A DNA stretch of 64,000 nt from Candidatus Omnitrophota bacterium (GTDB lineage Bacteria > Omnitrophota > Gorgyraeia > 2-02-FULL-51-18), in NCBI GenBank assembly GCA_945877765.1, contig CAMDWQ010000002.1, forward strand, positions 14,464-78,463. The letters are read 5' to 3'. A program made the translations under genes and the position numbers. Positions 1 to 19,687 of the stretch are shown in pieces. The number at the start of each line of letters is the position of its first letter. Within the stretch, counting starts at the first letter, position 1. The notes beneath the pieces were generated by a model that was given only the letters and a program-made list of their open reading frames with translations, had not been told where the DNA came from and searched no databases.

Positions 1-1311
1 GAAACAAGGATTTATCATCTAAAGTATGCCCGTTTATCCAACTCTCCCATTGATGTGGGGGGGAACGGGACGATTAAGGATCTTGTTTCCTTGCAGAGCG
101 CTTCTATTGAGAGCTCGGGCTCTCGTTCGTCTTCTTCAGGATCTTCGGCCTCATCGACAACCTCCTCAAATTCTAGCTCGGCAACTCCTGCTAATTTGGT
201 GGTTGAGCGCGGAATTGACCGCGTCATCGCAAGTCTCTTGACGCCGGCAGGTAAACTTACCGGTGATATTCAAAGCAACAGCTTGATTATCACGGATGTC
301 CCTTCAAAATTAGATGATATTGAAAAGGTGTTGGCGCAGATTGATCTGCCCACTCCTCAAGTTTTAATTGAAGTCTACTTAATGGAGATCAAAAAAGATA
401 TCCTAACCAATCATGGCGTTGATTGGGGTGGAGAGGATGGAGCGATTGCCTCGTTCACCGGTGGGTCAAGAACCACAGGTTTTCCTTTTACGGAAAGTTT
501 CCTTAACAGTTCAAAGGGTGTAAAGGCGACCACCCAAGGAACATCTACTTTGACGCTGGGAACATTGAGCGCCACAAGTTTTCAGGCGACTTTGCATTTT
601 CTTACGCAGGATATCAGCACAAAAGTATTGGCGCGCCCCCGTGTTCTTACTATGAGCAATGAAGCGGCCAATATCAAGCTCGTGACGAACGCAGCGATCG
701 CTAACCAAACTTCGCTAACAACAGCCGATGGTCAGTCAACTTCCACAGCTAATTCGGCAGAGAGATCTCAGGTCGGCATTACTTTGAAAATGACACCTCA
801 GGTCAATGCCGATGAAACGGTGGGACTATTTTTAGAGCCCTCCATCACCACAGTTGCTGTCTCAAGTTTTTTCCCCACCATATTTTTGGATCCAACTACT
901 CGCGTGGTGCGCACTGTCACACGTGTTAAAAATCATGAGACGCTGGTCATTGGCGGTCTCATGGAAAGAAACGGTAGTAAAGACGGCAAAAGAATACCTT
1001 TTTTAGGAAGCGTCCCTCTGGTTGGAAAGGCTTTCAGCTACGACAATAACTCTGACAGCGATCGCGAGCTTATTATTTTTATTACGCCACACATTGTTCA
1101 TACTTATAATACTTTCTCACAAAAAAATGCAATGTCTCCCATGGGTCAAAAAGATACTTCAATCCAAAAAGTTTTGAGTGAGTTTCGGGATTCAGAGATG
1201 ATTTCTGAGCTCGATGTGGCCGAAGCCCGCGGAATCAAAAATGATCTCAAAGTTAAAGAAAAAAAAATGAGGACGCCGCTTCCTCCTGAAGGCAACAGAG
1301 GTATTCTCTGA
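1..1311 (+). CDS. Secretin (GspD/PilQ family), 5'-truncated at window edge
   Basis: The frame is open from position 1. N-terminal secretin-N-like 'IYHLKYA' motif, Ser-rich linker, and C-terminal secretin signature '...ETLVIGGLMERNGSKDGKRIPFLGSVPLVGKAF...RELIIFITPHIV'. The stop overlaps the start of the next gene (TGATG). Confidence 0.85.
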   Translation, partial: ETRIYHLKYARLSNSPIDVGGNGTIKDLVSLQSASIESSGSRSSSSGSSASSTTSSNSSSATPANLVVERGIDRVIASLLTPAGKLTGDIQSNSLIITDVPSKLDDIEKVLAQIDLPTPQVLIEVYLMEIKKDILTNHGVDWGGEDGAIASFTGGSRTTGFPFTESFLNSSKGVKATTQGTSTLTLGTLSATSFQATLHFLTQDISTKVLARPRVLTMSNEAANIKLVTNAAIANQTSLTTADGQSTSTANSAERSQVGITLKMTPQVNADETVGLFLEPSITTVAVSSFFPTIFLDPTTRVVRTVTRVKNHETLVIGGLMERNGSKDGKRIPFLGSVPLVGKAFSYDNNSDSDRELIIFITPHIVHTYNTFSQKNAMSPMGQKDTSIQKVLSEFRDSEMISELDVAEARGIKNDLKVKEKKMRTPLPPEGNRGIL

Positions 1312-3026
1312 TGGCAGGAAAAAATCCACGCATAGGCGACCTTCTAATTGAAGCTGGGTTGGTTACGGCTTCTCAGGTTGAACAGGCTTTAAAACAACAA
1401 GAGAAGGGTGGGGGGGAACTTCTTGGCGCGACTTTAATTCGGCTTGGATTTGTGGATGAAAAAAATCTTGCCACTGCCCTCAGCAAGCAGCTTAAAATCC
1501 CATTTTTTTCAATGGAAAACTGGCCAGGAATTGCCTCCAACGCCAAGCGATTGACGTATCTCATTCCAGAGGTTTATGCGCGCAAAAATACGGTGCTGGT
1601 GATTGAGCGCAAGGACGGGGTGATGGTAGTCGCTCTGACGGACCCTACCGATGTTGTCTTGTTGGACAACTTGCAAAAAATGACTCGCCTGGAAATAGAA
1701 AGCGTAATTGCGACGCGTACCGATATTATTGCAGCCTTAAATCAAATTTATACCGAGGGGGGAGCGTTAAAATCTGCAGTCGAATCATTTAGGTTGCAGT
1801 CAGGCTTCGAATCCTCGGCTGCGGCAGGTGCTGCAGGCCTTGGGAATGCGGTAGCCGAAATTGATAAAGCGCCGGTGGTGCAGCTGACCAACCTTATTCT
1901 TGACGAAGCGATGCGTTATCGCGCCAGTGATATTCATCTAGAACCTTATGAAAAAGAAACTTCCATTCGTTTTCGTATTGACGGCGTGCTTAAATCAGTC
2001 GCTCCGCCAGACAAAACAATTTTTACGGCACTTGTTTCTCGTTTAAAAATTCTTTCCAATATGGATATCGCTGAAAAGCGTTTGCCTCAAGATGGAAGTT
2101 TTACAGCGACTGTTAGAAATAAGGTCTACGATTTCCGTGTCTCCACCGTGCCAACGATCTACGGGGAAAAAATGGTTTTGCGTATCCTTGACCGCAGCAG
2201 CGCTCGTCTTGAGCTGGGAATACTGGGATTTGAGGCGGATGAATTAGCGCTTTTTCGAGAAGCAATCAATAAGCCTAATGGACTCATTTTAATCACCGGA
2301 CCCACGGGAAGCGGCAAAACCACTACGCTTTACTCAGCCCTAAATGAATTGAAGGGCGAGCAGGTTAATATTACAACCATTGAAGACCCTGTGGAGTATC
2401 AGCTGGAGGGGGTTAATCAGGTCCAAGTGAAGTCAAGTATCGGGTTAACGTTCGCTTCCGCGCTGCGTTCTTTTTTGCGGCAAGATCCTGATATCATTCT
2501 TGTGGGAGAGACACGTGATTTAGAGACGGCACAGATTTGCATCCGCTCATCGCTTACCGGACACCTGGTTTTTAGCACGATTCATACCAACGACGCTATC
2601 TCTAGCGTCACCCGCCTTCAAGATATTGGCATCGAACCTTTTTTGGTCGCCTCCTCCTTAACGCTGATCGTTGCCCAAAGGCTTGTTCGACGACTCTGCG
2701 AGAAATGCAAAATGCCTCACCAGCCGAACTGGGAATCAATTCCCAAGGAAGTCGTTTGGGATAGATCCAAGACCATTTACCAGGCGGTGGGTTGTGAGGA
2801 TTGCGCTAAAACTGGTTATTTAGGTCGAATGGCTATTTATGAAATCGTGCCGGTTTACGAAGATATGCGCGAATTAATTGCAAAAAAAGCACCGATTTCT
2901 GAGCTTCGGGCTCTGGCTTTAAAAAATGGGTGGCCTACGCTTGCCCAAAGCGCTTTCAAAAAAGTTTTTTTAGGAATCACCTCTCTGGATGAGGCTCTGC
3001 GAATGGTTATGATTAGGGAAGGCTAA
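1311..3026 (+). CDS. Type II secretion / type IV pilus assembly ATPase (GspE/PilB family)
   Basis: GspE N-terminal domain, Walker A 'GPTGSGKTTT', Asp/His boxes, and C-terminal tetracysteine-like 'CEKCK...CEDCAKTGY' motif. Length 571 aa. Confidence 0.9.
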   Translation: MAGKNPRIGDLLIEAGLVTASQVEQALKQQEKGGGELLGATLIRLGFVDEKNLATALSKQLKIPFFSMENWPGIASNAKRLTYLIPEVYARKNTVLVIERKDGVMVVALTDPTDVVLLDNLQKMTRLEIESVIATRTDIIAALNQIYTEGGALKSAVESFRLQSGFESSAAAGAAGLGNAVAEIDKAPVVQLTNLILDEAMRYRASDIHLEPYEKETSIRFRIDGVLKSVAPPDKTIFTALVSRLKILSNMDIAEKRLPQDGSFTATVRNKVYDFRVSTVPTIYGEKMVLRILDRSSARLELGILGFEADELALFREAINKPNGLILITGPTGSGKTTTLYSALNELKGEQVNITTIEDPVEYQLEGVNQVQVKSSIGLTFASALRSFLRQDPDIILVGETRDLETAQICIRSSLTGHLVFSTIHTNDAISSVTRLQDIGIEPFLVASSLTLIVAQRLVRRLCEKCKMPHQPNWESIPKEVVWDRSKTIYQAVGCEDCAKTGYLGRMAIYEIVPVYEDMRELIAKKAPISELRALALKNGWPTLAQSAFKKVFLGITSLDEALRMVMIREG

Positions 3027-3034
3027 GCTCACCG

Positions 3035-4246
3035 ATGCCGCGTTTCCGTTATGTAGCCCACACGCTGGCAGGGCTTCGTATTACGGGTGAAGAAGTTGCC
3101 GTTGATGAGAACGCTCTGGTCAGGGCCCTTCAAAGCCGCGATCTGTTCGTCGCGCGATTAGCCATGACCGGTGAAGAGCTTGGGGGCGAGCTTTCCAAAA
3201 GAGCCCATTCAAAAATACGCGATGAGGATCTTCTTCATTTTGCACGAGAATTAGGGACACTGCTGAACTCAGGAATTCCTTTCGATCATGCGCTAGACTT
3301 GGTCACCGACCAAGTGCGAAGCTTTCAACTGGCTAAAGTCTTAATACAGATTCGTGAGGATGTGAACGCAGGCGTCTCTTTTCATCATGCGATCGAAAAG
3401 CATCCCAAAAGTATCCCCTTTTTGTGGGGGCATCTGATTGAAGCGGGGGAGGCTGTAGGTAATATTGCCGGGGTTTTGGGGCATATAGCCAAGCAGCTTG
3501 AGCAGTCAATCGCGCTAAAAAGAAAAATTATATCGGCTCTTTTGTACCCGGCCATCCTGATTGTTGTTACCATCATCGCAATCTCTGTTTTCCTCCTGTT
3601 TGTCATCCCGCAGTTTAGCCGCGTATTTGAGGTTTTGCACACGAAGCTGCCTTTGATGACGCGCGTCATTTTTTCGATTAGTGCATTCGCGAAGACCTTT
3701 TTTATCCCGAGTTTTGTTGTCATTTTTTTGGCCGCTTATATTTTAAAAAAAAGCACCGAGACCCCGACCGGCCGGCGCACGCTGGATCTATGGCTAGTGA
3801 AGGCGCCCATCATTAGCGAGCTCGTTCGAGACGTTGTGATGGCGCGTATTTGTATTAATCTAGCAGCCGTATTATCCAGTGGTGTCGGGCTGATTTATGG
3901 GCTTGATGTAGTTTCGCGGACATCCGGAAATAAGATTTATGAAGAGATGTTGGAAGGCGTGATGGAGGATGTGCGGGACGGCAGCTCCATGTCGCAGGCA
4001 TTAAGTAAGCGGGCTGTTTTTTCTCCGCTGATGATCCAGATGGTGATCGTGGGAGAAGAAAGTGGGCAATTGCCGGAAATGATTCAGAAAGTAGCTAATT
4101 ATTATGAAGAGAAGGTGGAAACTTTGGTGGCGCGAGTCAGCACTTTATTCGAACCGGTGATGTTGATTTTTTTGGGAGTTGTCGTCGGGTCGATTGTAGT
4201 GGCGCTCATGTTGCCGATTGTCACGATTTCATCGTCTCTTCATTGA
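3035..4246 (+). CDS. Inner-membrane platform protein (GspF/PilC family)
   Basis: 403 aa, two repeated GspF domains with hydrophobic TM segments, placed directly after the ATPase. Confidence 0.88.
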   Translation: MPRFRYVAHTLAGLRITGEEVAVDENALVRALQSRDLFVARLAMTGEELGGELSKRAHSKIRDEDLLHFARELGTLLNSGIPFDHALDLVTDQVRSFQLAKVLIQIREDVNAGVSFHHAIEKHPKSIPFLWGHLIEAGEAVGNIAGVLGHIAKQLEQSIALKRKIISALLYPAILIVVTIIAISVFLLFVIPQFSRVFEVLHTKLPLMTRVIFSISAFAKTFFIPSFVVIFLAAYILKKSTETPTGRRTLDLWLVKAPIISELVRDVVMARICINLAAVLSSGVGLIYGLDVVSRTSGNKIYEEMLEGVMEDVRDGSSMSQALSKRAVFSPLMIQMVIVGEESGQLPEMIQKVANYYEEKVETLVARVSTLFEPVMLIFLGVVVGSIVVALMLPIVTISSSLH

Positions 4247-4355
4247 TAAATAGTAGTTGAAATGTGCTAGGTATGGTGTAGACTTACATTAGGAAAGCTA
4301 GTTTTAGTTAAAATATTTTAACAGAACGAAAAGAAGGATAAATAGGGGATTTGAA

Positions 4356-4802
4356 ATGATAAAATTAATAAAAAATAAAAAAGGTTTTACTCTTCTAGAG
4401 CTTTTGATTGTGCTTGTCGTGATGGGTGTTATTGCAGGGTTGATGTTTCCTGTATTGGCGGCTCAGGTTGAAAGAGGGCGTGCTCAGGAAGCGGTGACGG
4501 CACTTGGGACGGCCAAGCAGATGATGGTTGTCTACCATCAAACAACGGGAGGGAATTCCTATGCCAACGCCGGTTTTAATCCTGCGGTTCCTGGGTTCAT
4601 GGGGTACGACCCTAACGCTGCAGCTGCGGGACAAGTACCTGTTTTTATTTACACGGTGGTCTCTGCCGGCGATACATTTACCATCACCGCGACTCGTCAG
4701 GCTACGGTCTTAGCGCCTTTGCCGGCGAATTTTAACCCAGTAAATAACACCATTACTATTAATGAGCAAGGGCAGGTTGTTCGAAACGGCATTTACGCAT
4801 AA
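4356..4802 (+). CDS. Prepilin-type (GspG/major pilin-like) protein 1
   Basis: Class III leader 'MIKLIKNKKG|FTLLELLIVLVVMGVIAGL' with G(-1), F(+1), E(+5) followed by a hydrophobic helix. 148 aa, no Cys pair (GspG-like). Confidence 0.85.
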   Translation: MIKLIKNKKGFTLLELLIVLVVMGVIAGLMFPVLAAQVERGRAQEAVTALGTAKQMMVVYHQTTGGNSYANAGFNPAVPGFMGYDPNAAAAGQVPVFIYTVVSAGDTFTITATRQATVLAPLPANFNPVNNTITINEQGQVVRNGIYA

Positions 4803-4823
4803 TCAGGGCTGAAAGAATGTGGC

Positions 4824-5237
4824 ATGCGTACTTGTAGACAGCTTCAAAATTGCCGAGGTATAGGTCTGGCTGAAATTTTAATTGTCCTGTCGGTTATGTG
4901 TGTGGTGGCAGGACTAACAATACCTGTCTATATCGCAAGGACAGAGAGGCATCGATCGGAGGAAGCGATTCAGCACCTGGCAGCTGTGAAGGATGCTTTG
5001 TTGCAGTACCGATCCCTTAACGGCACCTACGCAGGGGCATCCTTTAATAATATTCGCTACGACCCAAATGTAGGCGAAGCCGGGCAGGACGCTCTTTTTT
5101 CTTACAACCTCGATATTCTTACGACTAATGAGTATACGGTTACCGCTCAACGATTACCATTAGATGCTAATAACGGGAATACGATTAGCCTAGATCAAGC
5201 CGGAACGCTAACGAGGCGGGGAGTTTATGATGGGTAG
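4824..5237 (+). CDS. Prepilin-type protein 2
   Basis: '...CRG|IGLAEILIVLSVMCVVAGL' prepilin N-terminus with E(+5). 137 aa. Confidence 0.75.
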   Translation: MRTCRQLQNCRGIGLAEILIVLSVMCVVAGLTIPVYIARTERHRSEEAIQHLAAVKDALLQYRSLNGTYAGASFNNIRYDPNVGEAGQDALFSYNLDILTTNEYTVTAQRLPLDANNGNTISLDQAGTLTRRGVYDG

Positions 5238-5655
5238 ATTGACACGCCGGCCAACGGGGGGCAGATCGCAAGGGTTTACACTGCTGGAAATATTGATTAC
5301 CCTAATGATTTTGGGGGTACTTGCGGGACTTGCGATACCGATTTATTCCCGGCGAGTTGAAGAGAGCCGCGCCAACGAAGCCACTGTCAATCTCAACGCT
5401 ATCTACATGGGCCAAAAAATATACGCGCTCAATAATAGCGGAGATTACTGGAATGGCGGGGTGGGTCCTGCCGTTGCGGATATCAACACCACTCTAAATA
5501 TTGACATCAATCCGCAATTTTATGACATTGCTTCTATCAGTGCCGCTAACGGGGCAAACCCCAAAACATTTGTCGCCGTTGCAACTCGAAATAATACTTC
5601 GGGCGGGGATGGGGTTACTAGTTATAGGATCAATGACGCTGGTGTGGTGAGTTAG
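5227..5655 (+). CDS. Prepilin-type protein 3
   Basis: '...RSQG|FTLLEILITLMILGVLAGL' prepilin N-terminus. 142 aa. Confidence 0.8.
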   Translation: MMGRLTRRPTGGRSQGFTLLEILITLMILGVLAGLAIPIYSRRVEESRANEATVNLNAIYMGQKIYALNNSGDYWNGGVGPAVADINTTLNIDINPQFYDIASISAANGANPKTFVAVATRNNTSGGDGVTSYRINDAGVVS

Positions 5656-6047
5656 TGTTGACTAGAAATTGTCGCCCGGTCAATGTCACGAAAAATCAAA
5701 ATGGTTTTTCGTTGGTTGAGGTGGTTGTGGCGTTAATTGTTCTTGCCGTGCTTTCTGTGGGTTTGCTTCGAGGTGCAATTTCAGCGCACCGCTCGGTTCC
5801 TGCTCAATTGGATCGCAGCGGCGCTCAAAACCTCGGGCGTGCGATTATTGAGTCTCTTTATGAGGCTGTGCGTCAGGACTGGTGGAATTTAACCGACCGT
5901 CCGCTAAGCGTAGGCACTCCCTTGGGCGCCCCCCGCGCAACGACCGTTGCTGGCAGGACTTACACCTCTGAATATTCGGTCGCCGCTGTCAACTTGGCTG
6001 GAGATCCCGGTCAGGATTATCGCAAGATCGAAGTCACTGTTCGATGA
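5655..6047 (+). CDS. Minor pseudopilin (GspI/PilV-like)
   Basis: '...NQNG|FSLVEVVVALIVLAVLSVGLL'. 130 aa. Confidence 0.7.
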   Translation: MLTRNCRPVNVTKNQNGFSLVEVVVALIVLAVLSVGLLRGAISAHRSVPAQLDRSGAQNLGRAIIESLYEAVRQDWWNLTDRPLSVGTPLGAPRATTVAGRTYTSEYSVAAVNLAGDPGQDYRKIEVTVR

Positions 6048-6610
6048 AAATCAGGGGTACTTCAGGGCACACATTGCTTGAAATTGTAATTGCCAGTGTT
6101 TTGATCGGCATGATTTTTGTGATGATCACCACTTTGTACGCTACTTCCTTGAAATTCTTAAGAGGTGACATGGCCTCAAATGACCTTGATACCTTGTTAG
6201 CTCTTGAGACGATGGCGCGTAACGCTTCGACGTCGACGGACGCCGTCGTGGACATGGGTGGATCACAACTTAAGCTTCGAATCGATACGAATAACCCCTC
6301 CACAGCAACAGCTTTGGATGACCAATGGGTGAGTTATCGCTTTTTAAGGAACGGCGCCGCTTTTGAGCTTAGAAATCGCACGGTGCTGCCTCCCGCAGCT
6401 GCGCCTGCTAATGTGACGGTAGCGGATAGAGAAGTGGTAAGCGGGTTGCCGGTGCTTGGTGGTGCAGGCCAGTCGGGTTTTCAACTTTTAAATCCATCTA
6501 CACCAGAGGGGGCCCCAACGGTTGTACAGATTATGCTGGTAGTTTCGGGCACTGCCAATTCGCAACCGCGCACTTTTTTGACTAGCGTGGCTTTAGAGAG
6601 AGCTAAATGA
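6044..6610 (+). CDS. Minor pseudopilin (GspJ/PilW-like)
   Basis: '...TSG|HTLLEIVIASVLIGMIF'. 188 aa. Confidence 0.65.
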   Translation: MKIRGTSGHTLLEIVIASVLIGMIFVMITTLYATSLKFLRGDMASNDLDTLLALETMARNASTSTDAVVDMGGSQLKLRIDTNNPSTATALDDQWVSYRFLRNGAAFELRNRTVLPPAAAPANVTVADREVVSGLPVLGGAGQSGFQLLNPSTPEGAPTVVQIMLVVSGTANSQPRTFLTSVALERAK

Positions 6611-7026
6611 GGTGCGGTAGGGGCAGATTTCTTAAAAATAAAAAAGGGGCCGTTTTATTTGTGGTGCTTCTATTTAGTCTTTTGATCGCCTCTATCATGG
6701 CTTATATTGCGCATATGGTTTATCAGCGTACACGATTGCTGGATGCGGTGGGTGTCAAACGGACGAGAAATTATTACCGCGCTCAGGCCGGTCTTGTGGA
6801 TGCCTATTGGCGGCTGAGGACGAATCACGCACCGCCTGGATTGCCTGGAAATTTTAATGATGCCAACTTTTCAGTGCAGTATTATATGAGCATTGATTCC
6901 GGCACTATAACGCCGGCACGGGAGGCAGATTCAACCGTCATGGTAACGATAGGGACAAGAAATGACAATATTGCCAGTGCGGATTACCATTTGCGGCCGG
7001 TTTCTGCCACGGGTTTGGACACGTAA
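6607..7026 (+). CDS. Minor pseudopilin lacking Glu+5 (GspK/PilX-like, short)
   Basis: 'KKGAVLFVVLLFSLLIASIMA' prepilin-like hydrophobic N-terminus without E(+5), as in the GspK family. Only 139 aa. Confidence 0.55.
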   Translation: MRCGRGRFLKNKKGAVLFVVLLFSLLIASIMAYIAHMVYQRTRLLDAVGVKRTRNYYRAQAGLVDAYWRLRTNHAPPGLPGNFNDANFSVQYYMSIDSGTITPAREADSTVMVTIGTRNDNIASADYHLRPVSATGLDT

Positions 7027-7053
7027 AATGAATGAGCAGAGAAAGGTGGAGAC

Positions 7054-7539
7054 GTGAAAAATAAACAGTGTTTTGGGACGATGATGGTTTTTTTGTTGTG
7101 GGCTCTGTTGCCCACGGCTCTCGCCGCAGAAGATTCTGCCGTCCCGCAGGCGATGAAAAAAATGCAAGAAAACCAGGCAAGGTTTTTACGTGAAGCGGAC
7201 GAGCAGGAAGAAAAGATGATGGAGGCGATGAAGGCGATAAACCCCGAAGCTTACAAGCAGCGTAAAGCTGCGATTGAAAATCAAAAAAAAATCAATAGCA
7301 TTGCCAGTTTATTTTATGCAAAAAAGATGTCCGAGTCGGAGGCGCGGTCACGATTAACACCTCTTCTAGGAGACCGGATTCGTCAAGAGGCAGCCGGGGT
7401 TGACTCAGAAATTCACCGTCTAGAAAAAAAATTGGAATCTCTTAAGCAGGTGAAGGGAAATAGCTCTGCTTTGCTTAAGCGGCGGATCGACCAGATTCTT
7501 GGTCTGGTAAAAATTAACCCGGAAGACGCAATCTTTTAA
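7054..7539 (+). CDS. Secreted coiled-coil protein (Sec signal peptide; possible periplasmic Spy/CpxP/ZraP-like)
   Basis: GTG start after RBS 'AAAGGTGGAG'. Signal peptide '...LLPTALAAE', then Lys/Glu-rich helical sequence. 161 aa. Confidence 0.45.
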   Translation: MKNKQCFGTMMVFLLWALLPTALAAEDSAVPQAMKKMQENQARFLREADEQEEKMMEAMKAINPEAYKQRKAAIENQKKINSIASLFYAKKMSESEARSRLTPLLGDRIRQEAAGVDSEIHRLEKKLESLKQVKGNSSALLKRRIDQILGLVKINPEDAIF

Positions 7540-7548
7540 AGGACACCT

Positions 7549-8649
7549 ATGATGCTGCAAAAAAAAACACGAAATATCGGATTAATTCTTATTTTGATGA
7601 CGGTTCCTCTCTTTGCATTGCGCGCGGCTAGTGCCGAGGATGTTAAGATAAGCACGTATTATCCAGCACCTTATGGAAGCTATGACGAGCTTACCAGTGA
7701 GAGTAAGACGTTGCTTGCGACCAACCCGATCACGGGGGTCGCGGGGGATGCGAACGCCAAAGTGGGCATCGGAACTACTGTGCCCGCCTACAAGTTGGAC
7801 GTGGCGGGAACCGCTGGTTTGGGACAGACCTATCTCAAAGAATCAACCCTTCTTTTTAGTGATCCAAACCATGCTTTTACAGCCATTGGAAACACAGACG
7901 GTTATGCGGCGATTGAAAATGATGTCAATCGCGACACGCTTATGATTATGGGGCGCAGTGGAGGAATTGGCGGTGTGCGCTCCGTTAGTATTTATGACCG
8001 GTTAGATGTGAACGGCTTTCTGCGCGTATTCAATGGAGCTTTTTTAACTATCAATGACCCGCTTGAAGCGGCTGTGCAAGGTGTAAATAATGGCACTGGA
8101 TCATTAGGATCGCTAGGCGTCGGCGTCTACGGTGTATATGGTATTACGCATTCCAATAGTTTCGCAGGTTATTTTAGAGGGGATTCTTATGGAGTGCTCG
8201 GTGGAAGCGAGCTGGCAGAGGGTTATGCAGGCTTATTCTATAACTACGCATCCAACTACTTCTCAATTTTAGGCTATCAAAATTATGGCTTATATTCCAA
8301 TGGAGTTGTCTCAGCTCTTAACGTAGCACCTTCTGACAGCAGAAAAAAAACTGATATCGCGACCATTCCAAACGCTCTTGATAAAGTCTCTGCTCTTCGC
8401 GGAGTTAATTTCAAATGGAAAGAGGAGAAGCCTCTGGCGGGCCAGCAGATGGGGCTGATCGCGCAGGAAGTGGAAACCGTTTTCCCGGAGCTGGTCACAG
8501 ACGATCCAACCGGGTACAAGGCGCTTAATTATACTGGGCTGTCGGGCGCGCTCGTGGAAGCGATTAAGGAGCTTAAGTTAAAAAATGAAGCTCTTGAAAA
8601 GGAAACACAACTGCTTAAAGAGCGCATAGAAAAGTTAGAAAATAAATAG
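7549..8649 (+). CDS. Secreted Gly-rich fibre-like protein with C-terminal intramolecular-chaperone (Peptidase S74 / endosialidase chaperone-like) domain
   Basis: Signal peptide 'MMLQKKTRNIGLILILMTVPLFALRAASAE', then a Gly/Tyr-rich region. C-terminus 'SDSRKKTDIATIPNALDKVSALRGVNFKWKEEKPLAGQQMGLIAQEVETVFPELV...ALVEAIKELKLKNEALEKE' matches the tail-fibre chaperone domain consensus. Confidence 0.7.
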   Translation: MMLQKKTRNIGLILILMTVPLFALRAASAEDVKISTYYPAPYGSYDELTSESKTLLATNPITGVAGDANAKVGIGTTVPAYKLDVAGTAGLGQTYLKESTLLFSDPNHAFTAIGNTDGYAAIENDVNRDTLMIMGRSGGIGGVRSVSIYDRLDVNGFLRVFNGAFLTINDPLEAAVQGVNNGTGSLGSLGVGVYGVYGITHSNSFAGYFRGDSYGVLGGSELAEGYAGLFYNYASNYFSILGYQNYGLYSNGVVSALNVAPSDSRKKTDIATIPNALDKVSALRGVNFKWKEEKPLAGQQMGLIAQEVETVFPELVTDDPTGYKALNYTGLSGALVEAIKELKLKNEALEKETQLLKERIEKLENK

Positions 8650-8666
8650 AATAATCAAGAAACCAA

Positions 8667-8695
8667 TTGAGATGTCTACTTTATTAGTATATACT
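8667..8695 (+). promoter_or_regulatory. Candidate sigma70 promoter (TTGAGA-17-TATACT), possibly producing a near-leaderless transcript for the 8704 gene
   Basis: -35 at 8667-8672, -10 at 8690-8695, only 8 nt before ATG 8704. No SD sequence in between. Confidence 0.3.
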
Positions 8696-8703
8696 CATTT
8701 CTC

Positions 8704-9522
8704 ATGAGTCTATCTAAACCCAAGAATACTCAAATCGTAATAATCTTCGTCGCAGTCCTTTTGGCTGGCTCAACCGTGTTTTTTTATCAAACTAGCGCAT
8801 CCGAGCGCCAAAATCGCATTCAAAAAGAGCAACAGCTGTCTCAAAAGCAAGTAGAATTGGATAACACAGAAGCACAGATTGCGGAACTCAACAAAGCCAT
8901 GGAAGATCTAAAAGAGACATCAAACAAGACCGTTGAAACTCTCCAGAGCAAAGAAGAGGCGCTAAAAGACTTTGAGGGGCAGTTGAGCAGAATGAAAAAA
9001 GAGGTTGAAAGCTTAAGCCGGGACAAAGAGCAGGCTGTTAACGACAGCTTTAAGAAAGACGAAGTAATTGCTGAGTTTACCGAACGCTTAGCTGTGCTTC
9101 AACGCGAGAAAAAGATCCTTTTGGGTAAACAAGAAGAGCTTACCAAGGAATTGAATGATCTCAAAAATCAAACGTGGCAAGGAAGCTCTTCGTCAGCTGC
9201 CGATGAGCCCTATTCGGTGGTTTCTAGCAATGATTCGGGAGAAGGAATTGATACCGTTAGCTTAGGTAAAATTGTTGTGTCTAAAAAAACGAGTAGCGCT
9301 GCGCGCGTTCAGCAGGTCAATCCGGTCTATGATTTTATTGTTATTGATGCGGGGAAGAATGAAGGAATGAAGGATGGTGCCATTGTCAATATTGTTCGGA
9401 ATAATACCTTGATTGGAAAAGCAGTCATTCGTCACACGCGCCCAGATGTATCTGCCGCAACACTTCTACCTGAATGGAAAAAATTGCCAGTTCAAAAGGG
9501 CGACCTAGTCACTAAGCTCTAA
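8704..9522 (+). CDS. Bitopic coiled-coil membrane protein (N-terminal TM anchor, long coiled coil, C-terminal beta-rich domain; GspM/PilO/GspC-like topology)
   Basis: N-terminal TM 'IVIIFVAVLLAGSTVFFY', heptad-rich Glu/Lys region, Ser-rich linker, and C-terminal 'DFIVIDAGKNEGMKDGAIVNIV...GKAVI' beta-barrel-like (SAF/FlgA-like) segment. Confidence 0.35.
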   Translation: MSLSKPKNTQIVIIFVAVLLAGSTVFFYQTSASERQNRIQKEQQLSQKQVELDNTEAQIAELNKAMEDLKETSNKTVETLQSKEEALKDFEGQLSRMKKEVESLSRDKEQAVNDSFKKDEVIAEFTERLAVLQREKKILLGKQEELTKELNDLKNQTWQGSSSSAADEPYSVVSSNDSGEGIDTVSLGKIVVSKKTSSAARVQQVNPVYDFIVIDAGKNEGMKDGAIVNIVRNNTLIGKAVIRHTRPDVSAATLLPEWKKLPVQKGDLVTKL

Positions 9523-9546
9523 ATCAAATCTATTTTTTAAAAAAAA

Positions 9547-10002
9547 TTAAGCGGTAAATTTATCAGCGTAGCGGGAAATCCACTTGCGCGCTGCTTCTTC
9601 CTCAGAAAGCTCATAGCCGAGTTCGCGAGAAATAGTTTTTTGGTATTCGATAATCTGCAGGACTTCTTCGGCAAGCTTTGCTTTGAAGGCATCGGGGGAA
9701 TTGATGAAGGCTACGCCCGTGCGGAATTGAGTGCTTTTTTTGTACCCTTTGCAATACGCCACGCGCGCGCGGACATCAAACAGTTTTTCCTTCACCGGGA
9801 TTGAGAGAGTTAAAAGAGAACCCTTAGAAAGCCTGCTAGGCCACACAAACGAGAGACCCCCCAGCGAAATATCTTTGGATTCTGAAATATAGACATCTTT
9901 CGCTTTTTCCAGCTTAAGCTGGATGGGAACGTTGACAGGATGACGGAAAAAACGGCGCTTTTCCCTGCGGAATAAGTTTAACATAGGTGTACTATACCAC
10001 AT
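9547..10002 (-). CDS. PilZ domain (c-di-GMP binding) protein
   Basis: 'RREKRRFFRHP' (RxxxR) and 'DISLGGLSF' (DxSxGG) motifs. 151 aa. Divergent from xth. Confidence 0.7.
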   Translation of the reverse strand: MWYSTPMLNLFRREKRRFFRHPVNVPIQLKLEKAKDVYISESKDISLGGLSFVWPSRLSKGSLLTLSIPVKEKLFDVRARVAYCKGYKKSTQFRTGVAFINSPDAFKAKLAEEVLQIIEYQKTISRELGYELSEEEAARKWISRYADKFTA

Positions 10003-10100
10003 GAGATGAGCTTCTTTTTAAAAAAGTTTTTATTCTTTGGGTATGCTCATTTGGATTTAAATTTGCTAATCGACGTCGTGTGCCCGGAGCCTGTTTTTCT

Positions 10101-10129
10101 TTGCGTTACAAGTCTTTTTTGCCTAGAAT
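10101..10129 (+). promoter_or_regulatory. Candidate sigma70 promoter for xth (TTGCGT-17-TAGAAT)
   Basis: -35 TTGCGT at 10101-10106, 17-nt spacer, -10 TAGAAT at 10124-10129, about 15 nt before ATG 10144. Confidence 0.35.
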
Positions 10130-10143
10130 GTGTGCTAGCCATC

Positions 10144-10911
10144 ATGGAAATTAAAATTGTTTCTTGGAATGTCAACGGTATCCGTTCGGCGATGCGGCAA
10201 GGCTTTTTAGATTTTGTCCAAAATGAAAAGCCGGATATTGTTTGTTTGCAGGAAATAAAAGCCGCAGCGGGAGGGATGAAGAATCCGCTCGAAGGTTATT
10301 TTGATTTCTGGAATCACGCACAGAGGCCCGGTTATGCCGGCACGGCGATTTTTAGCCGAATAAAACCGCTAGCCGTCAACAATGGGATCGGGGTTTCTAA
10401 ACACGACAGCGAAGGCAGGGTTTTAACGGCGGAATATAAAGATTTTTTTCTTGTCAATGTGTATGTGCCTAATTCCAAGCGTGATTTGAGTCGTTTGAAT
10501 TATCGTGCAAAAGAGTGGGATGTCGATTTTTTGAAATATCTCAAAACGCTCAGAAAGAAAAAGCCAGTCATTTTTTGCGGTGACTTGAACGTGGCTCACC
10601 ATGAAATTGATCTGACGAATCCCAAGAGCAATCAAAAAAACCACGGTTTTACACCCCAAGAGCGCGCTGGTTTTGATGCGTTTGTAAAGGCTGGCTTCAC
10701 TGATACTTTTCGCGAATTTGAAAAAGGGCCAGGCCATTATACGTGGTGGAGCCGTCTGAATAATTGCCGTAAGCGAAATATCGGCTGGCGTATTGATTAT
10801 TTTTGTATTTCTTCAGATTTAAAGAAATTTTTAAAAAAAGCCTGGATTTTAAACGAGGTTAACGGATCGGATCATTGTCCGGTTGGGATTGTGTTGAAAG
10901 GAGTTTTATGA
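10144..10911 (+). CDS. xth: Exodeoxyribonuclease III (AP endonuclease, Xth family)
   Basis: 'MEIKIVSWNVNGIRSA...CLQEIK...LNVAHHEIDL...GSDHCPV'. The upstream in-frame extension from 10006 has no family support. Confidence 0.85.
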   Translation: MEIKIVSWNVNGIRSAMRQGFLDFVQNEKPDIVCLQEIKAAAGGMKNPLEGYFDFWNHAQRPGYAGTAIFSRIKPLAVNNGIGVSKHDSEGRVLTAEYKDFFLVNVYVPNSKRDLSRLNYRAKEWDVDFLKYLKTLRKKKPVIFCGDLNVAHHEIDLTNPKSNQKNHGFTPQERAGFDAFVKAGFTDTFREFEKGPGHYTWWSRLNNCRKRNIGWRIDYFCISSDLKKFLKKAWILNEVNGSDHCPVGIVLKGVL

Positions 10912-16679: not shown

Positions 16680-17555
16680 ATGAAAAAAGAAAAGCTGCCT
16701 CCATTTTCCGCTGAAATTATTTTACGGCCTCGGTCTGCGTGGCTTTCTTTTGATTGGAACGAATTTTTTCAGTACCAGGATCTTTTGTGGCTCCTGGTGC
16801 GACGGGACATCGTCGCCCGCTACAAGCAAACTTTTTTCGGCAGAAGCTGGTTTGTTTTGCAGCCGTTACTGATGACCATCGTTTTTACGGTTGTTTTTGG
16901 AGGCGGGGTGGGTATCTCCACCGACGGCGCGCCGCGTATTCTTTTTTATCTCTGCGGGCTGCTTCCGTGGATTTATTTTTCAGAAAGCCTTCTTTCGGCC
17001 TCCTCAGCGCTTTTATCCAACGCGGACATGTTTCGTAAAATTTATTTTCCTCGATTGATTGTACCTATTGCCACGGTGCTATCGAGGCTTTTTGGTTTCG
17101 CCGTTCATTTCGGCATATTGATCGCTGTTTATGCCTATTACAAATTTTTTACCGTTTCCGGACAGAGCCTTTTTTTTGGCCGTTTCTGGTGGCTGCTTCC
17201 TTTGGCTTTTTGCCAGACGCTGGTCTTAAGCCTGGCAATGGGTTTGTGGGTCTCTGCGCTTTCGGTCAAGCGCCGTGATCTCCAGCATGCGGCGCCATTT
17301 TTGATTCAGATATGGATGTATGTTTCGCCGGTGATTTACCCGGTTTCGCTCGTTTCCGCTCAATGGCATGCGGCGTACCGCTTGAACCCAATGACCTGGG
17401 TTATTGAATTGTACCGGCACGCCTTCCTAGGAACGCCGTCCTTGGTAATTAATGCCGGCTGGATAGTAACCTCGTTGTTGATAAGTTTTTTTCTTTTGAT
17501 AGGCGGTTTTGCGGCGTTTAACGGCATTCAGCGGACGCTGGTCGACGCTCTCTAG
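16680..17555 (+). CDS. ABC-2 type polysaccharide export permease (Wzm/KpsM/TagG family)
   Basis: Six predicted TM segments and 'RDIVARYKQTFFGRSWFVLQPLLM' ABC-2 signature. 291 aa. Confidence 0.75.
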   Translation: MKKEKLPPFSAEIILRPRSAWLSFDWNEFFQYQDLLWLLVRRDIVARYKQTFFGRSWFVLQPLLMTIVFTVVFGGGVGISTDGAPRILFYLCGLLPWIYFSESLLSASSALLSNADMFRKIYFPRLIVPIATVLSRLFGFAVHFGILIAVYAYYKFFTVSGQSLFFGRFWWLLPLAFCQTLVLSLAMGLWVSALSVKRRDLQHAAPFLIQIWMYVSPVIYPVSLVSAQWHAAYRLNPMTWVIELYRHAFLGTPSLVINAGWIVTSLLISFFLLIGGFAAFNGIQRTLVDAL

Positions 17556-17560
17556 CGCGC

Positions 17561-18724
17561 ATGAGCCTGCCAGCCCTTGAGACGCAAGCACTTTCCAAAT
17601 CATATTCCATCCTGTCGGGTGGAAAATCCGAAACTCTGTGGGCGATCAAAGACCTAACACTTTCAATCCAAAATGGCGAGGTTGTGGGAATTATCGGGCG
17701 TAATGGTGCGGGCAAATCAACGCTGTTGAAAATCCTTTCCCGAATCACCGACCCCACCTCAGGCCATGCGATTTTGCGCGGAAGAGTTTCTTCTCTTCTA
17801 GAGGTTGGTACAGGTTTTCATCCGGAGCTTAGCGGCACCGACAATGTCTATGTTAACGGCGCGATTCTGGGAATGAAGCGTGCGGAAATAAGCGCAAAAT
17901 TTAAAGCCATTTCTGAATTTGCCGAAATTGAGAAGTTTATGGACATGCCCATTAAGTTTTATTCCAGCGGCATGCTGCTGCGCCTGGCTTTTGCTGTTGC
18001 CGCCCACTTGGAACCGGAGGTTCTAATTGTGGATGAGATTCTTGCCGTGGGTGATATTGGTTTCCAAAAAAAATGTATTGAAAAAACACACGACCTAACT
18101 CAGAGCGGGCGGACGGTGGTGCTGGTCTCGCACCAGATGAACCAGATTCGAAAACTATGCACCCGTTGTTTTTGGCTGGAGGAGGGCCGTCTAAAACAAG
18201 AAGGGCCGGTAGCGGAGGTGACAAGCGCCTACGAAGAAACGGCGGTATCAGGCGCTATTTTTCGTGATGCCCAGACGCATCCGTCCGCTGTGCGCGGAAA
18301 GGCAAAATTCAGCGGATGGGAAATCAGCGAACCGGCCCCGGACCCCAAGAGAAGTTTTGCGGTGAAAGCCGAACAGCCGTTTTCGGCGGCGTTTACGGCA
18401 GAGATTTCGACCGAATTGTTCAACGTGATTCAGGGCTGCGCTCTTTACGATTCTCAAGGACAACTTCTTTGGGGCGGCGGCGCCCAGCATCTGCGATTGA
18501 CGCCCGGGCGTAAAAAATTTATTTACCGGATGCCGGCGCTTCCTTTGACGCCGGGGAACTATTATTGGCATGTCAGTCTTTACGAGGGAGAAGAAATGCT
18601 CGACAATTGGTACGCAAAGCCCGCGATGAACGTGGAGGCTTTGCCCTTGAATCATCCGATGGATGTCTGGCGTGGGATTTTAAATTTTCCTTATAATTTT
18701 AAGGTGACCGATGAGACCTCGTGA
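17561..18724 (+). CDS. Polysaccharide ABC transporter ATP-binding protein with C-terminal glycan-binding extension (Wzt-like)
   Basis: Walker A 'GRNGAGKSTLLKIL', ABC signature 'YSSGMLLRLAF', Walker B 'VLIVDEILAVGD'. About 150-aa C-terminal extension typical of Wzt. Confidence 0.8.
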   Translation: MSLPALETQALSKSYSILSGGKSETLWAIKDLTLSIQNGEVVGIIGRNGAGKSTLLKILSRITDPTSGHAILRGRVSSLLEVGTGFHPELSGTDNVYVNGAILGMKRAEISAKFKAISEFAEIEKFMDMPIKFYSSGMLLRLAFAVAAHLEPEVLIVDEILAVGDIGFQKKCIEKTHDLTQSGRTVVLVSHQMNQIRKLCTRCFWLEEGRLKQEGPVAEVTSAYEETAVSGAIFRDAQTHPSAVRGKAKFSGWEISEPAPDPKRSFAVKAEQPFSAAFTAEISTELFNVIQGCALYDSQGQLLWGGGAQHLRLTPGRKKFIYRMPALPLTPGNYYWHVSLYEGEEMLDNWYAKPAMNVEALPLNHPMDVWRGILNFPYNFKVTDETS

Positions 18725-18787
18725 ATGGATCGATCTACTTGTTCTTCGGGTAAATAATTTCATTCGTCTTAAAAGCGACGGTTTCCA

Positions 18788-19669
18788 ATGACCGAGAGTC
18801 AATACCCCTGTATTTCTGTTGTGATTCCCTCATTTAACCAGGGTCGTTTTATTGAACAAACCCTTCTGTCTGTTTTGGGGCAACAGTACCCAAACCTCGA
18901 GGTGCTGGTAATGGATGCAGGCAGCACCGACGAAACTCATGAAATTCTGAGGAAGTATCAAGATAGAATTTTTTGGCAAGCTAAGCCCGATGGCGGACAG
19001 GCAGAAGCGATCAATGAAGGGATGCGTATCAGTCGGGGAGATATTCTTTGCTGGCTAAGCTCTGATGATTTTTATTTGCCTGGCACTCTTTTGGACATCG
19101 CTCGTCGTTTCCAGGGGCATCTGAAGGAGTCTTTTTTGGTGTACGGCTCTGCACTGACTCTTTATGAGGAAAATGGCGTCATTGACGGTGGTTGGAAAAA
19201 TGCCGATGCGCTGGATTGCGTTGCGCTGACTTATGAGTGTACGGTGATTCAGCCCAGCGTTTTTTGGACTCGTGAAGCGTGGCGGCGGGTAGGACCGATC
19301 AACACCAAGTACGACCACGTGATTGACTGGGAATGGTATATCCGCGCTTCCAAAATTGCGACTTTTTGTTCTGTTGCAAAATTTTATTCAGTATTCAGGC
19401 TCCATCCGTTGCAGAAATCGAAAAAGGACGGGTTGTGCCGACGCCGGGAAATACTCGAAGTCATCGATATTTACGCGCCAGACAATTGGAAAAAAAATTA
19501 TCATTTAATTTACAGCCGCTTCGAACGCGTTCAGCGGCTACTAGTTTTTTTTAAAAATAGAAAAAGCATCTCTCTTTATTTATTGTTTTGCCTATGTTTT
19601 CCGTGGGTTGCTTTTAAAATTAAATCACGGCGGGATGTAGGGATTATCCTGGGTATGTTGGAACAATAA
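18788..19669 (+). CDS. Glycosyltransferase family 2
   Basis: 'ISVVIPSFNQGRFIEQTLLSVLGQQYPNLEVLVMDAGSTDET' GT-A N-terminus and 'WLSSDDFY' DxD-like motif. Confidence 0.8.
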   Translation: MTESQYPCISVVIPSFNQGRFIEQTLLSVLGQQYPNLEVLVMDAGSTDETHEILRKYQDRIFWQAKPDGGQAEAINEGMRISRGDILCWLSSDDFYLPGTLLDIARRFQGHLKESFLVYGSALTLYEENGVIDGGWKNADALDCVALTYECTVIQPSVFWTREAWRRVGPINTKYDHVIDWEWYIRASKIATFCSVAKFYSVFRLHPLQKSKKDGLCRRREILEVIDIYAPDNWKKNYHLIYSRFERVQRLLVFFKNRKSISLYLLFCLCFPWVAFKIKSRRDVGIILGMLEQ

Positions 19670-19687
19670 CCTTCTTAAAGGAATTCT

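Follow-up and report, generated by a model that had tools for sequence, protein, structure and literature searches.

Does the run of secretin, ATPase, platform and pilin-like genes at the left end of this stretch of DNA—64,000 nucleotides of contig CAMDWQ010000002.1 from a Candidatus Omnitrophota bacterium, hereafter the window—encode a type II secretion system (T2SS) that lacks several of its parts, or a type IV pilus that the edge of the window cuts in two? An original prediction, made from the letters of the window, favored the former and described a secretion-type cluster with a triplicated major pseudopilin, lacking the L, M and C components, the prepilin peptidase and a retraction ATPase. 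We instead consider it probable, at roughly three chances in four, that an uncultured bacterium makes a type IVa-like pilus, gated by cyclic di-GMP (c-di-GMP), from one compact, single-locus operon whose downstream two-thirds lie in the window. The presence of PilM, PilN, PilO and HR-domain proteins ahead of the secretin, an ATPase of the PilB/MshE type, type IVa-like pilins, and a PilT gene in a related locus together lead to the reading as a type IVa-like single-locus pilus. More generally, a secretin-ATPase-platform-pilin run at the edge of a contig or window mimics an incomplete T2SS; here, an additional 2.9 kb of upstream sequence turned it into a complete single-locus type IV pilus.

Positions 1-7026 of the window carry nine plus-strand genes—a secretin gene cut at its 5' end, genes for a 571-amino-acid (aa) assembly ATPase and a platform protein, and six prepilin-like open reading frames (ORFs)—whose families were called with Pfam and NCBIfam hidden Markov model (HMM) scans. 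The E-values are too strong for chance, and the gene list and order given by the original prediction proved correct in coordinates and strand:

1-1311, plus strand: secretin, the 3' 436 codons (Pfam Secretin, 3e-38, plus Secretin_N)
1311-3026, plus strand: pilus extension ATPase of the PilB/MshE type, 571 aa (T2SSE, 2.7e-139; MshEN, 1.6e-15)
3035-4246, plus strand: platform protein of the PilC/GspF/MshG family, 403 aa (T2SSF in two stretches, 1.3e-57)
4356-4802, plus strand: pilin pA1, 148 aa, KKG↓FTLLE, no Cys (N_methyl, 1.4e-8)
4824-5237, plus strand: pilin pA2, 137 aa, atypical at +1 to +3 (G↓IGLAE, where its orthologs have G↓FT(L/M)(V/L)E)
5227-5655, plus strand: pilin pA3, 142 aa (N_methyl, 5.6e-7)
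5655-6047, plus strand: minor pilin m1, 130 aa, GTG start, NG↓FSLVE, in the GspI/PilV position (N_methyl, 2.9e-8)
6044-6610, plus strand: minor pilin m2, 188 aa, SG↓HTLLE, in the GspJ/PilW position (N_methyl only, 0.014)
6607-7026, plus strand: minor pilin m3, 139 aa, KG↓AVLFV, in the GspK/PilX position (prepilin-like hydrophobic N-terminus without Glu5)

Neighboring genes overlap by 1-11 nt or follow one another closely, save for a gap of 109 nt that precedes the first pilin gene. Promoter and terminator counts across positions 1-10200 equaled those of shuffled controls, and operon boundaries could not be drawn from that scan.

The order secretin, ATPase, platform, pilins and GspI/J/K-like proteins is the gene order of a T2SS, and so the same genes could also be read as a non-canonical T2SS, in which a short periplasmic pseudopilus would push folded exoproteins through the secretin, with an adjacent secreted protein bearing an S74 domain as candidate cargo. 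The absence of PilT nearby and the presence of genes for secreted proteins just downstream agree with this reading; the latter, however, are not conserved with the locus. The evidence from the individual components, taken up below, makes a T2SS unlikely in our view, and none of the T2SS-specific features that we looked for in the sequence was positively found.

Further genes of the locus lie outside the window. The secretin is indeed truncated at position 1, as the original prediction recognized in leaving its upstream neighbors unassessed. An exact-sequence look-up with the ATPase returned two contigs, L001 (CANFBX010000006.1, assembly GCA_947444795.1) and L002 from the European Nucleotide Archive (ENA). 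Positions 8691-13132 of L001 are 100% identical to positions 1-4442 of the window, and the contig adds 8.7 kb upstream, bringing window and upstream sequence to 72.7 kb. Immediately 5' of the secretin, at L001 5811-8301, are three genes, in this order:

PilM-PilN fusion protein, 533 aa (PilM_2/TIGR01175 pilM match N-terminally, PilN match C-terminally)
PilO/GspM-type protein, 183 aa (PilO, 3.7e-10; T2SSM_b; GspM_XpsM)
HR-domain-like protein, 114 aa, directly before the secretin (signal peptide and RDPF motif, then a beta-rich C-terminus)

The reported lack of L, M and C is thus an artefact of the window edge, because the PilM-PilN, PilO and HR-like genes sit just beyond it. By sequence, the locus appears to encode a PilM/PilN/PilO/PilP alignment subcomplex ahead of the secretin, the PilP part being a weak assignment, and it is pilMNOP directly upstream that the original prediction had named as the arrangement of an ordinary type IVa pilus.

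The fusion protein has the architecture of GspL, yet it matches PilM_2 and PilN, and PilM_2 also matches its homologs in relatives; its N-terminal part further shows a weak match to the Akkermansia PilM-like family Amuc_1101. An AlphaFold model of low confidence (a predicted local distance difference test score, pLDDT, of 60) contains an actin-like beta-beta-beta-alpha pattern, a long helix at residues 344-394 and a C-terminal alpha-beta-beta repeat. Searched with Foldseek, it retrieved PilM of Pseudomonas aeruginosa, Thermus and Myxococcus xanthus at the top (E = 5e-17 to 9e-15), then FtsA, and then EpsL/GspL (1e-9), a ranking that, given the low confidence of the model, serves only as backing for the HMM result. 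Fusions of this kind are not rare: an impression of rarity came from a word-indexed search that found five matches, whereas in an exhaustive HMMER search 829 cluster representatives passed E ≤ 1e-3, and 241 passed E ≤ 1e-10; with few exceptions they are 500-560 aa long and align end to end.

The small protein between PilO and the secretin is harder to place. Its family weakly matches T2SSB in 4 of 7 members (best E = 0.0014), T2SSC in one of seven and PilP in one of seven, and has no PDZ domain; an alignment of relatives had included L009 7790-8098 in error, as that gene encodes a helix-turn-helix (HTH) protein. The weak T2SSB and T2SSC matches could be counted in favor of a T2SS. HR-type domains of GspC, GspB and PilP share one fold, and all dock onto secretin N0 domains. 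The pattern of matches points to an HR-type domain, PilP/GspB/GspC-HR-like, with PilP as a weak assignment.

The ATPase speaks for a pilus. It scores best on the NCBIfam model for PilB (622.9 bits; cutoff 675.65) and second best on that for GspE (TIGR02533, 580.8 bits; cutoff 630.25), missing both cutoffs. The best matches among solved structures are the full-length PilB proteins of M. xanthus (504 bits) and Geobacter (494 bits); the Vibrio GspE structure aligns over the catalytic core only (390 bits). As a control, genuine Escherichia coli GspE scored 706 on the GspE model and 529 on the PilB model, so that a true GspE stands 178 bits higher on GspE than on PilB, whereas the window ATPase stands 42 bits lower. 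By these scores, the window ATPase is clearly not a canonical GspE, and its likeness to PilB lies mainly in the N-terminal half. There, an MshEN domain occupies the place of the GspL-binding N1E region of a T2SS ATPase: residues 6-144 align with the N-domain of Vibrio cholerae MshE in its c-di-GMP-bound form (5htl, E = 4e-18) and with the domains by which Thermus PilF binds c-di-GMP, the two MshEN motifs of 24 residues are present (RIGDLLIEAGLVTASQVEQALKQQ and LLGATLIRLGFVDEKNLATALSKQ), and the c-di-GMP-motif model NF053729 scores 58.4 bits, above its cutoff of 38. The Walker A, Asp box, Walker B, His box and tetracysteine motifs, read from the translation, are all intact.

The phylogenetic placement agrees. 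ATPase homologs were gathered by scanning one genome per GTDB species, yielding at least 80 loci; among the matches listed, the nearest is that of L054, a metagenome-assembled genome (MAG) of Candidatus Omnitrophota, at 50% identity, with the remainder listed at 39-44% and drawn from many phyla. In a neighbor-joining tree (385 core columns, 93 sequences, 100 bootstraps), the window ATPase grouped with that of L005 in 100/100 bootstraps and with that of L054 in 79/100. Next out are L009 (Omnitrophica WOR_2) and then L073 and L077, beyond which stand ATPases of loci in which PilB, PilT and PilC are arranged in the classical way. Over the core, the window ATPase is about 51% identical to the ATPases of PilB-PilT-PilC loci, 46-47% to E. 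coli GspE and 42% to HofB. The enzyme neither reaches the TIGR02533 cutoff nor groups with E. coli GspE/EtpE (0/100 bootstraps). With this, the preference of the original prediction for a T2SS over a pilus gives way, and of the ATPase phylogeny that it had proposed as a check, the nesting among PilB ATPases came out as expected for an ordinary type IVa pilus, but the PilB cutoff was missed. A further point against a T2SS comes from L009, a close relative in which the gene directly after the secretin-ATPase pair encodes PilT (TIGR01420, 434 bits; cutoff 319).

As a separate observation on these ATPases, tandem pairs of full-length PilB-like copies occur in L012, L022, L032, L048, L060 and L064 (Omnitrophota) and in L040 and L075 (Planctomycetia MAGs). 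In the tree, six of these loci contribute their upstream copies to one clade and their downstream copies to another, and L040 and L048 pair in a separate clade, a pattern that, at the sequence level, indicates old tandem duplications of the assembly ATPase.

An MshEN domain in an assembly ATPase encoded within a single locus might also suggest a strict pilus of the mannose-sensitive haemagglutinin (MSHA) type, belonging to the MSH clade described in Denise et al. 2019. The gene order parallels mshI-J-K-L-(M-N)-E-G, followed by pilins as in mshB-A-C-D and then mshO-P-Q; the locus is without prepilin peptidase and PilT, like MSH loci (PMC4624765, PMC6668835); and the related L089 locus holds a tetratricopeptide repeat (TPR) protein that is MshN-like in its TPR repeats only. 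We nevertheless regard membership of this clade as very unlikely. MshM, an ExeA-like AAA protein that is mandatory in the TXSScan model of MSH (PMC6668835), was not found in the locus, and there is no MshN between secretin and ATPase, where the stop of the one overlaps the start of the other at position 1311. The secretin is not of the MshL type, scoring 143 on that equivalog against a cutoff of 250 and lower than on GspD and PilQ. The MshEN domain, moreover, is not exclusive to MSH, being present in ordinary PilB and PilF, and the placement in the tree rests on no Msh reference ATPase.

In full, the secretin is a 569-aa protein (L001 8292-10001) whose gene starts 399 nt before the window. It comprises an STN/N0-like domain (1.2e-7), one Secretin_N domain split by a Ser/Thr-rich linker, the Secretin pore (5e-38) and a C-terminal tail of about 70 aa. 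All NCBIfam scores fall under cutoff—GspD 213.6 (351.35), PilQ 190.3 (284.35) and MshL TIGR02519 143.1 (250.2)—and a weak match to the Akkermansia family Amuc_1098 was also seen; for the PilM-like and secretin proteins, scores on Amuc_1101 and Amuc_1098 are far below the cutoffs, at 41.9 versus 650 and 68.8 versus 750. The platform protein behaves similarly, with GspF at 323.5 (cutoff 424) and the PilC models at about 265 (cutoff 700). For both proteins the best raw score thus belongs to a T2SS family, GspD and GspF respectively, as the T2SS reading would have it; but every T2SS equivalog cutoff is missed by a wide margin, and the GspD-type arrangement of N0 plus N1-N3 is absent from the secretin, which pairs STN with a single Secretin_N where E. 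coli GspD has N0 and three.

The pilins point in the same direction as the ATPase. The first five prepilin-like genes each encode a G-x-x-x-x-E class III signal motif with an N_methyl match, and the globular parts of pA1, pA2 and pA3 contain no Cys, as the original prediction had noted. This is a likeness to GspG and so a point for a T2SS, but the description "GspG-like" does not extend further: the GspG model TIGR01710 gave 34-40 bits (cutoff 88.85) and aligned only over positions 1-54/60 of 134, and BLAST against E. coli GspG likewise found similarity limited to the N-terminal helix, the region common to all type IV pilins. A profile built from pA1 homologs matched the Geobacter pilin, M. 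xanthus PilA, the PilA structure 9laa (2-110), the PAK-type pilins 1oqw/8tum (10-124) and Thermus PilA4, and it matched GspG over positions 10-71 only. The AlphaFold model of pA1 (pLDDT 88) shows a long alpha1 helix and a four-stranded sheet; its top Foldseek matches were the PAK pilin 1oqw, a Shewanella type IV pilin (4d40) and Acinetobacter baumannii PilA, with weak E-values (0.03) that make them supporting evidence only, while the Xcp pseudopilus (GspG) model received a probability of 0.08. With a short leader and a mature protein of about 138 aa, pA1 appears to fit a type IVa major pilin, allowing for the weak Foldseek E-values (0.03), and the pilins do not qualify as GspG major pseudopilins.

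Three such genes in a row were taken by the original prediction as an unusual triplication of a major pseudopilin. The three proteins, however, share only 26-39% pairwise identity (39% between pA1 and pA2, 26-28% between pA3 and either), and each belongs to a separate orthologous group with members in L005, L089 and L091, the pA3 group also in L093. Orthologs of pA2 (L005_c, L089_b, L091_b) are 46-51% identical and those of pA3 (in L005, L089, L091 and L093) 42-56%; the number of such genes in the relatives ranges from two (L093) to five (L054), and a recent duplicate within the pA1 group is seen in L005 only. Given this low mutual identity and the separate orthologous groups across genomes, the sequences indicate that pA1-pA3 are old, retained, non-redundant genes. 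Recent triplication or antigenic variation can be set aside, as each pilin has orthologs in other genomes, and so can the alternative of pseudogenes that the original prediction had allowed for, as the ORFs and their signal motifs are intact and orthologs exist elsewhere. As the first pilin gene, following the only sizeable gap (109 nt) and preceded by a good Shine-Dalgarno sequence, pA1 is our candidate for the major pilin by gene position. pA3 may occupy the GspH/FimU position ahead of the I-J-K-like trio.

That trio comprises the minor pilins, whose I/J/K labels rest on position, size and N-terminal features only. m1 has weak matches to PilV (23 bits) and XpsI that are confined to its N-terminus, and its orthologs occur in L005, L089 and L091, with a more distant one (28%) in L093. 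m2 is kept in four relatives at 30-56% identity. m3, for which no Pfam or NCBIfam family matched, is kept in four relatives as well, always without Glu5 and with an invariant YY(R/H)AQAG motif. Profiles of m2 and m3 found no significant match among solved structures. By position, pA3, m1, m2 and m3 would be the candidates for GspH, GspI, GspJ and GspK, but no significant similarity extends past the N-terminal helix, and m3, at 139 aa, is far shorter than the 325 aa of E. coli GspK, although both are without Glu5. A protein of a very different size was seen at L054 395-4144 (plus strand), 1.5 kb before the first pilus gene: it is 1249 aa long, has a prepilin-like N-terminus without Glu5 (KKDRGFALVLTLALVV) and no Pfam domain, and may be a giant K-type minor pilin or a tip adhesin.

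The order PilMN, PilO, HR-like protein, secretin, ATPase, PilC, pilins and three minor pilins is conserved in relatives: L005, L089/L090 and L093 show synteny over the full locus, and L054 shows it with variations. Between these genomes, YebC, RuvC, RuvA and RuvB are 78-89% identical and the pilus proteins 40-60%, indicating that the pilus genes evolve much faster, as is expected for a surface structure under host or phage pressure. The locus could instead belong to a distinct, compact filament lineage of Omnitrophota and related uncultured bacteria, standing between type IVa pili, MSH and T2SS. Its traits would be the PilM-PilN fusion, the secretin with one N-domain, a tip complex reduced to a minimum, several pilins that are conserved and not redundant, the c-di-GMP-gated ATPase and an accessory protein not recognised before, the conserved membrane-anchored coiled coil with a FlgT_C/MreC-like barrel; it might work without a dedicated PilT, and with it ultra-small cells might latch onto hosts. 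We hold this possible but doubtful. Type IVa pili are polyphyletic, MSH and T2SS are derived from them, and many systems are "generic" (Denise et al. 2019, PMC6668835); on sequence grounds, the locus fits into the grey zone of that classification, on the side of type IVa pili. Clusters of this kind have already been reported in the phylum, and within the type IV pilus family the locus is ordinary, though compact, its lineage being poorly studied.

Several observations weigh against a type IVa-like pilus. No component reaches the equivalog cutoffs of PilB, PilC or PilQ. The core of the ATPase (residues 189-571) scores about equally on PilB (548.6) and GspE (540.0), which would also suit a T2SS. 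No AMIN domain, which is typical of model PilQ, was detected in the full-length secretin, and the structural model of the PilM-PilN protein is of low confidence (pLDDT 60). The tree is a neighbor-joining rather than a maximum-likelihood one, its T2SS references come from E. coli only, and it includes no MSH reference. The original prediction was right that pilT and pilD are missing from the window: no PilT-like paralog or prepilin peptidase was found in the 72.7 kb, in a scan that skipped some ORFs between housekeeping genes. Finally, the function of the locus is predicted from sequence.

What was observed directly is the set of genes and domains, the families to which they are akin and the synteny in relatives; c-di-GMP gating, the choice of major pilin, retraction and a biological role are inferred. 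By analogy with type IV pili that have been characterised, the machine would work as follows. Prepilins would be cleaved by a prepilin peptidase encoded elsewhere, and a complex of the minor pilins m1-m3, acting at the tip or in initiation, would prime assembly on PilC. The hexameric ATPase, anchored at the membrane via the PilM domain, would add pilins once c-di-GMP occupies its N-terminal MshEN domain. The fibre would exit via the short, one-N-domain secretin, which the HR-domain protein would couple to the periplasmic ring of PilN and PilO. Retraction, if any, would be driven by a PilT encoded elsewhere, as in Vibrio MSHA. The likely role of such a fibre is attachment to surfaces or host cells. 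As a well-resolved example, the locus adds to the pilus machinery that has been proposed for host attachment in Omnitrophota, and it brings two predicted traits with it: control of the assembly ATPase by c-di-GMP, and a conserved coiled-coil/beta-barrel neighbor as a possible accessory factor.

That neighbor is among the genes immediately downstream of the minor pilins:

7054-8649, plus strand: secreted coiled-coil protein of 161 aa and secreted protein of 366 aa with a C-terminal Peptidase_S74 domain (3.8e-19)
8704-9522, plus strand: 272-aa coiled-coil protein with a transmembrane anchor and a C-terminal FlgT_C/MreC-like beta-barrel (FlgT_C)
9547-10002, minus strand: PilZ-domain protein, 151 aa, with RxxxR (REKRR) and DxSxxG (DISLGG) motifs (PilZ, 2.8e-14)

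The Peptidase_S74 domain of the 366-aa protein is an intramolecular-chaperone domain of the type found in phage tail fibres and endosialidases. In relatives the slot of this pair is taken by a 591-aa TPR protein (L089) or a 167-aa protein (L093), or is empty (L091); the pair may be co-transcribed with the locus but, judging from this, is not a conserved part of the machine. Homologs of the 272-aa protein, by comparison, lie downstream of the locus in L089 (11887-12735), L091 (5714-6562) and L093 (10104-10946) and upstream of it in the distant relatives L054 (4753-5640) and L009 (5408-6244), and five of six family members match FlgT_C (best E = 8.9e-5), which makes the protein a candidate for an unrecognised accessory factor of the pilus locus. 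The PilZ protein has copies of 81-82% identity in the same place in L089, L090 and L091; set against the 40-60% of the pilus proteins in the same relatives, this shows a rate of evolution like that of housekeeping genes, unlike that of the pilus genes. The protein may serve as a second receptor for c-di-GMP, linked to the pilus by adjacency only.

Further downstream, positions 16680-24528 (plus strand) encode an ABC-2/Wzt-type polysaccharide exporter; after it come a GT2 protein and two very large, multi-domain glycosyltransferases of 851 and 761 aa, of which one includes a 2OG-Fe(II) oxygenase domain. These genes bear on another alternative, namely that the filament machine serves DNA uptake, as a competence pilus, or polysaccharide export, as in Hps-like systems, rather than adhesion. 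Large glycosyltransferases and an exporter 10-17 kb downstream would fit such a role, as would weak matches of the pilins to ComP_DUS (23 bits for pA2, under cutoff) and, N-terminally, to ComG families, and a very weak match of m1 to HpsC (E = 0.047); in cyanobacteria and myxobacteria, slime secretion is reported to require secretins (PMC12475490). All of these matches, however, are under cutoff and mostly limited to the shared N-terminal helix, the locus holds no ComEA, ComEC or DprA gene, and housekeeping genes (YebC, RuvCAB, QueA) separate the glycosyltransferases from it. We therefore give this alternative very little credence, and retain an adhesive, type IVa-like pilus as the reading of the locus.

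The remainder of the window is largely housekeeping (xth, yebC, ruvCAB, queA, tgt, secDF, recJ, recG, sdh, and arginine and lysine biosynthesis), and Rfam and tRNA scans of the window gave no matches. An ORF of 1804 aa at 34058-39472 (plus strand) encodes an N-terminal hydrophobic segment and at least six copies of a GARL(A/S) motif and has no Pfam or NCBIfam match; Omnitrophota are noted for large orphan proteins. On the other side, upstream of the window at L001 2666-5010, genes for an Hpt protein, a hybrid histidine kinase and a response regulator stand between ExbD and a HAD hydrolase. A link of these signalling genes to the pilus was rejected, as the relatives L003 and L005 have a DUF493 gene there instead; by this comparison, they probably do not belong to the pilus locus.

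How, then, does the locus compare with known systems? With a T2SS, exemplified by the E. coli T2SS-beta locus (L086), it shares the order from secretin to minor pilins, the Cys-free pilins, and the architecture of GspL—cytoplasmic actin-like domain, transmembrane segment, periplasmic ferredoxin-like domain—which equals that of the PilM-PilN fusion. It differs in placing the assembly-platform genes upstream of the secretin, where a T2SS has them after gspK, in having no PDZ-bearing GspC, one secretin N-domain instead of three and an MshEN N-terminus on its ATPase, and in pilins that share only the N-terminal helix with GspG and no sequence similarity with GspH, GspI, GspJ or GspK.

With the type IVa machinery of P. 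aeruginosa, M. xanthus and Thermus, the correspondence is more extensive. There are counterparts for PilM, PilN, PilO, the HR/PilP-like protein, the secretin, the PilB-like ATPase, PilC and pilins of the type IVa fold; the ATPase has an MshEN N-terminus, as do PilB of M. xanthus and Geobacter and Thermus PilF, and nests among the ATPases of PilB-PilT-PilC loci; and the minor-pilin set ends in one without Glu5. Unlike the scattered loci of these models, however, the window locus forms one operon, with PilM and PilN fused, a short secretin without AMIN, pilins without a C-terminal disulfide, a protein of only 139 aa in the K/PilX position, no PilY1-like gene, PilT and PilD unlinked, and every component under its curated equivalog cutoff.

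The closest known gene order is that of the V. cholerae MSHA locus, mshIJKLMNEGF-mshBACDOPQ, in which the N-terminal domain of MshE binds c-di-GMP and PilT is encoded elsewhere (PMC4624765). The single-locus order is nearly the same, running from PilM-like MshI, PilO-like MshJ and small MshK through MshL, MshE and MshG to pilins and minor pilins, and PilT and prepilin peptidase again lie outside the locus. MSHA thereby offers a working model for pilus extension under c-di-GMP gating in attachment. Against this, MshM, MshN and MshF have no counterpart in the window locus, a small protein stands where MSHA has the large MshQ, the MshL model does not recognize the secretin, and MSH has not been described in the phylum of the window. 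The system probably works like MSHA; we do not file it as MSH because mshM, which the TXSScan model of MSH requires, is absent and the MshL cutoff is not reached.

Also close are the type IVa pilus clusters that TXSScan calls in nearly all Omnitrophota, for which a role in cell-cell attachment has been proposed (Seymour et al. 2023, PMC10066038). The ATPases most closely related to that of the window come from Omnitrophota loci of the same architecture, although the type-2/3 F-type ATPase that often adjoins those clusters (PMC10066038) is not beside the window locus. A more remote likeness is to the pilus-like Amuc_1098-1101 cluster of Akkermansia, through the weak matches of the PilM-like protein to Amuc_1101 and of the secretin to Amuc_1098, with the family cutoffs far off. 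For the Omnitrophota and Akkermansia clusters alike, the proposed role is attachment to other cells or to a host, a role that would suit the predicted pilus of the window as well.

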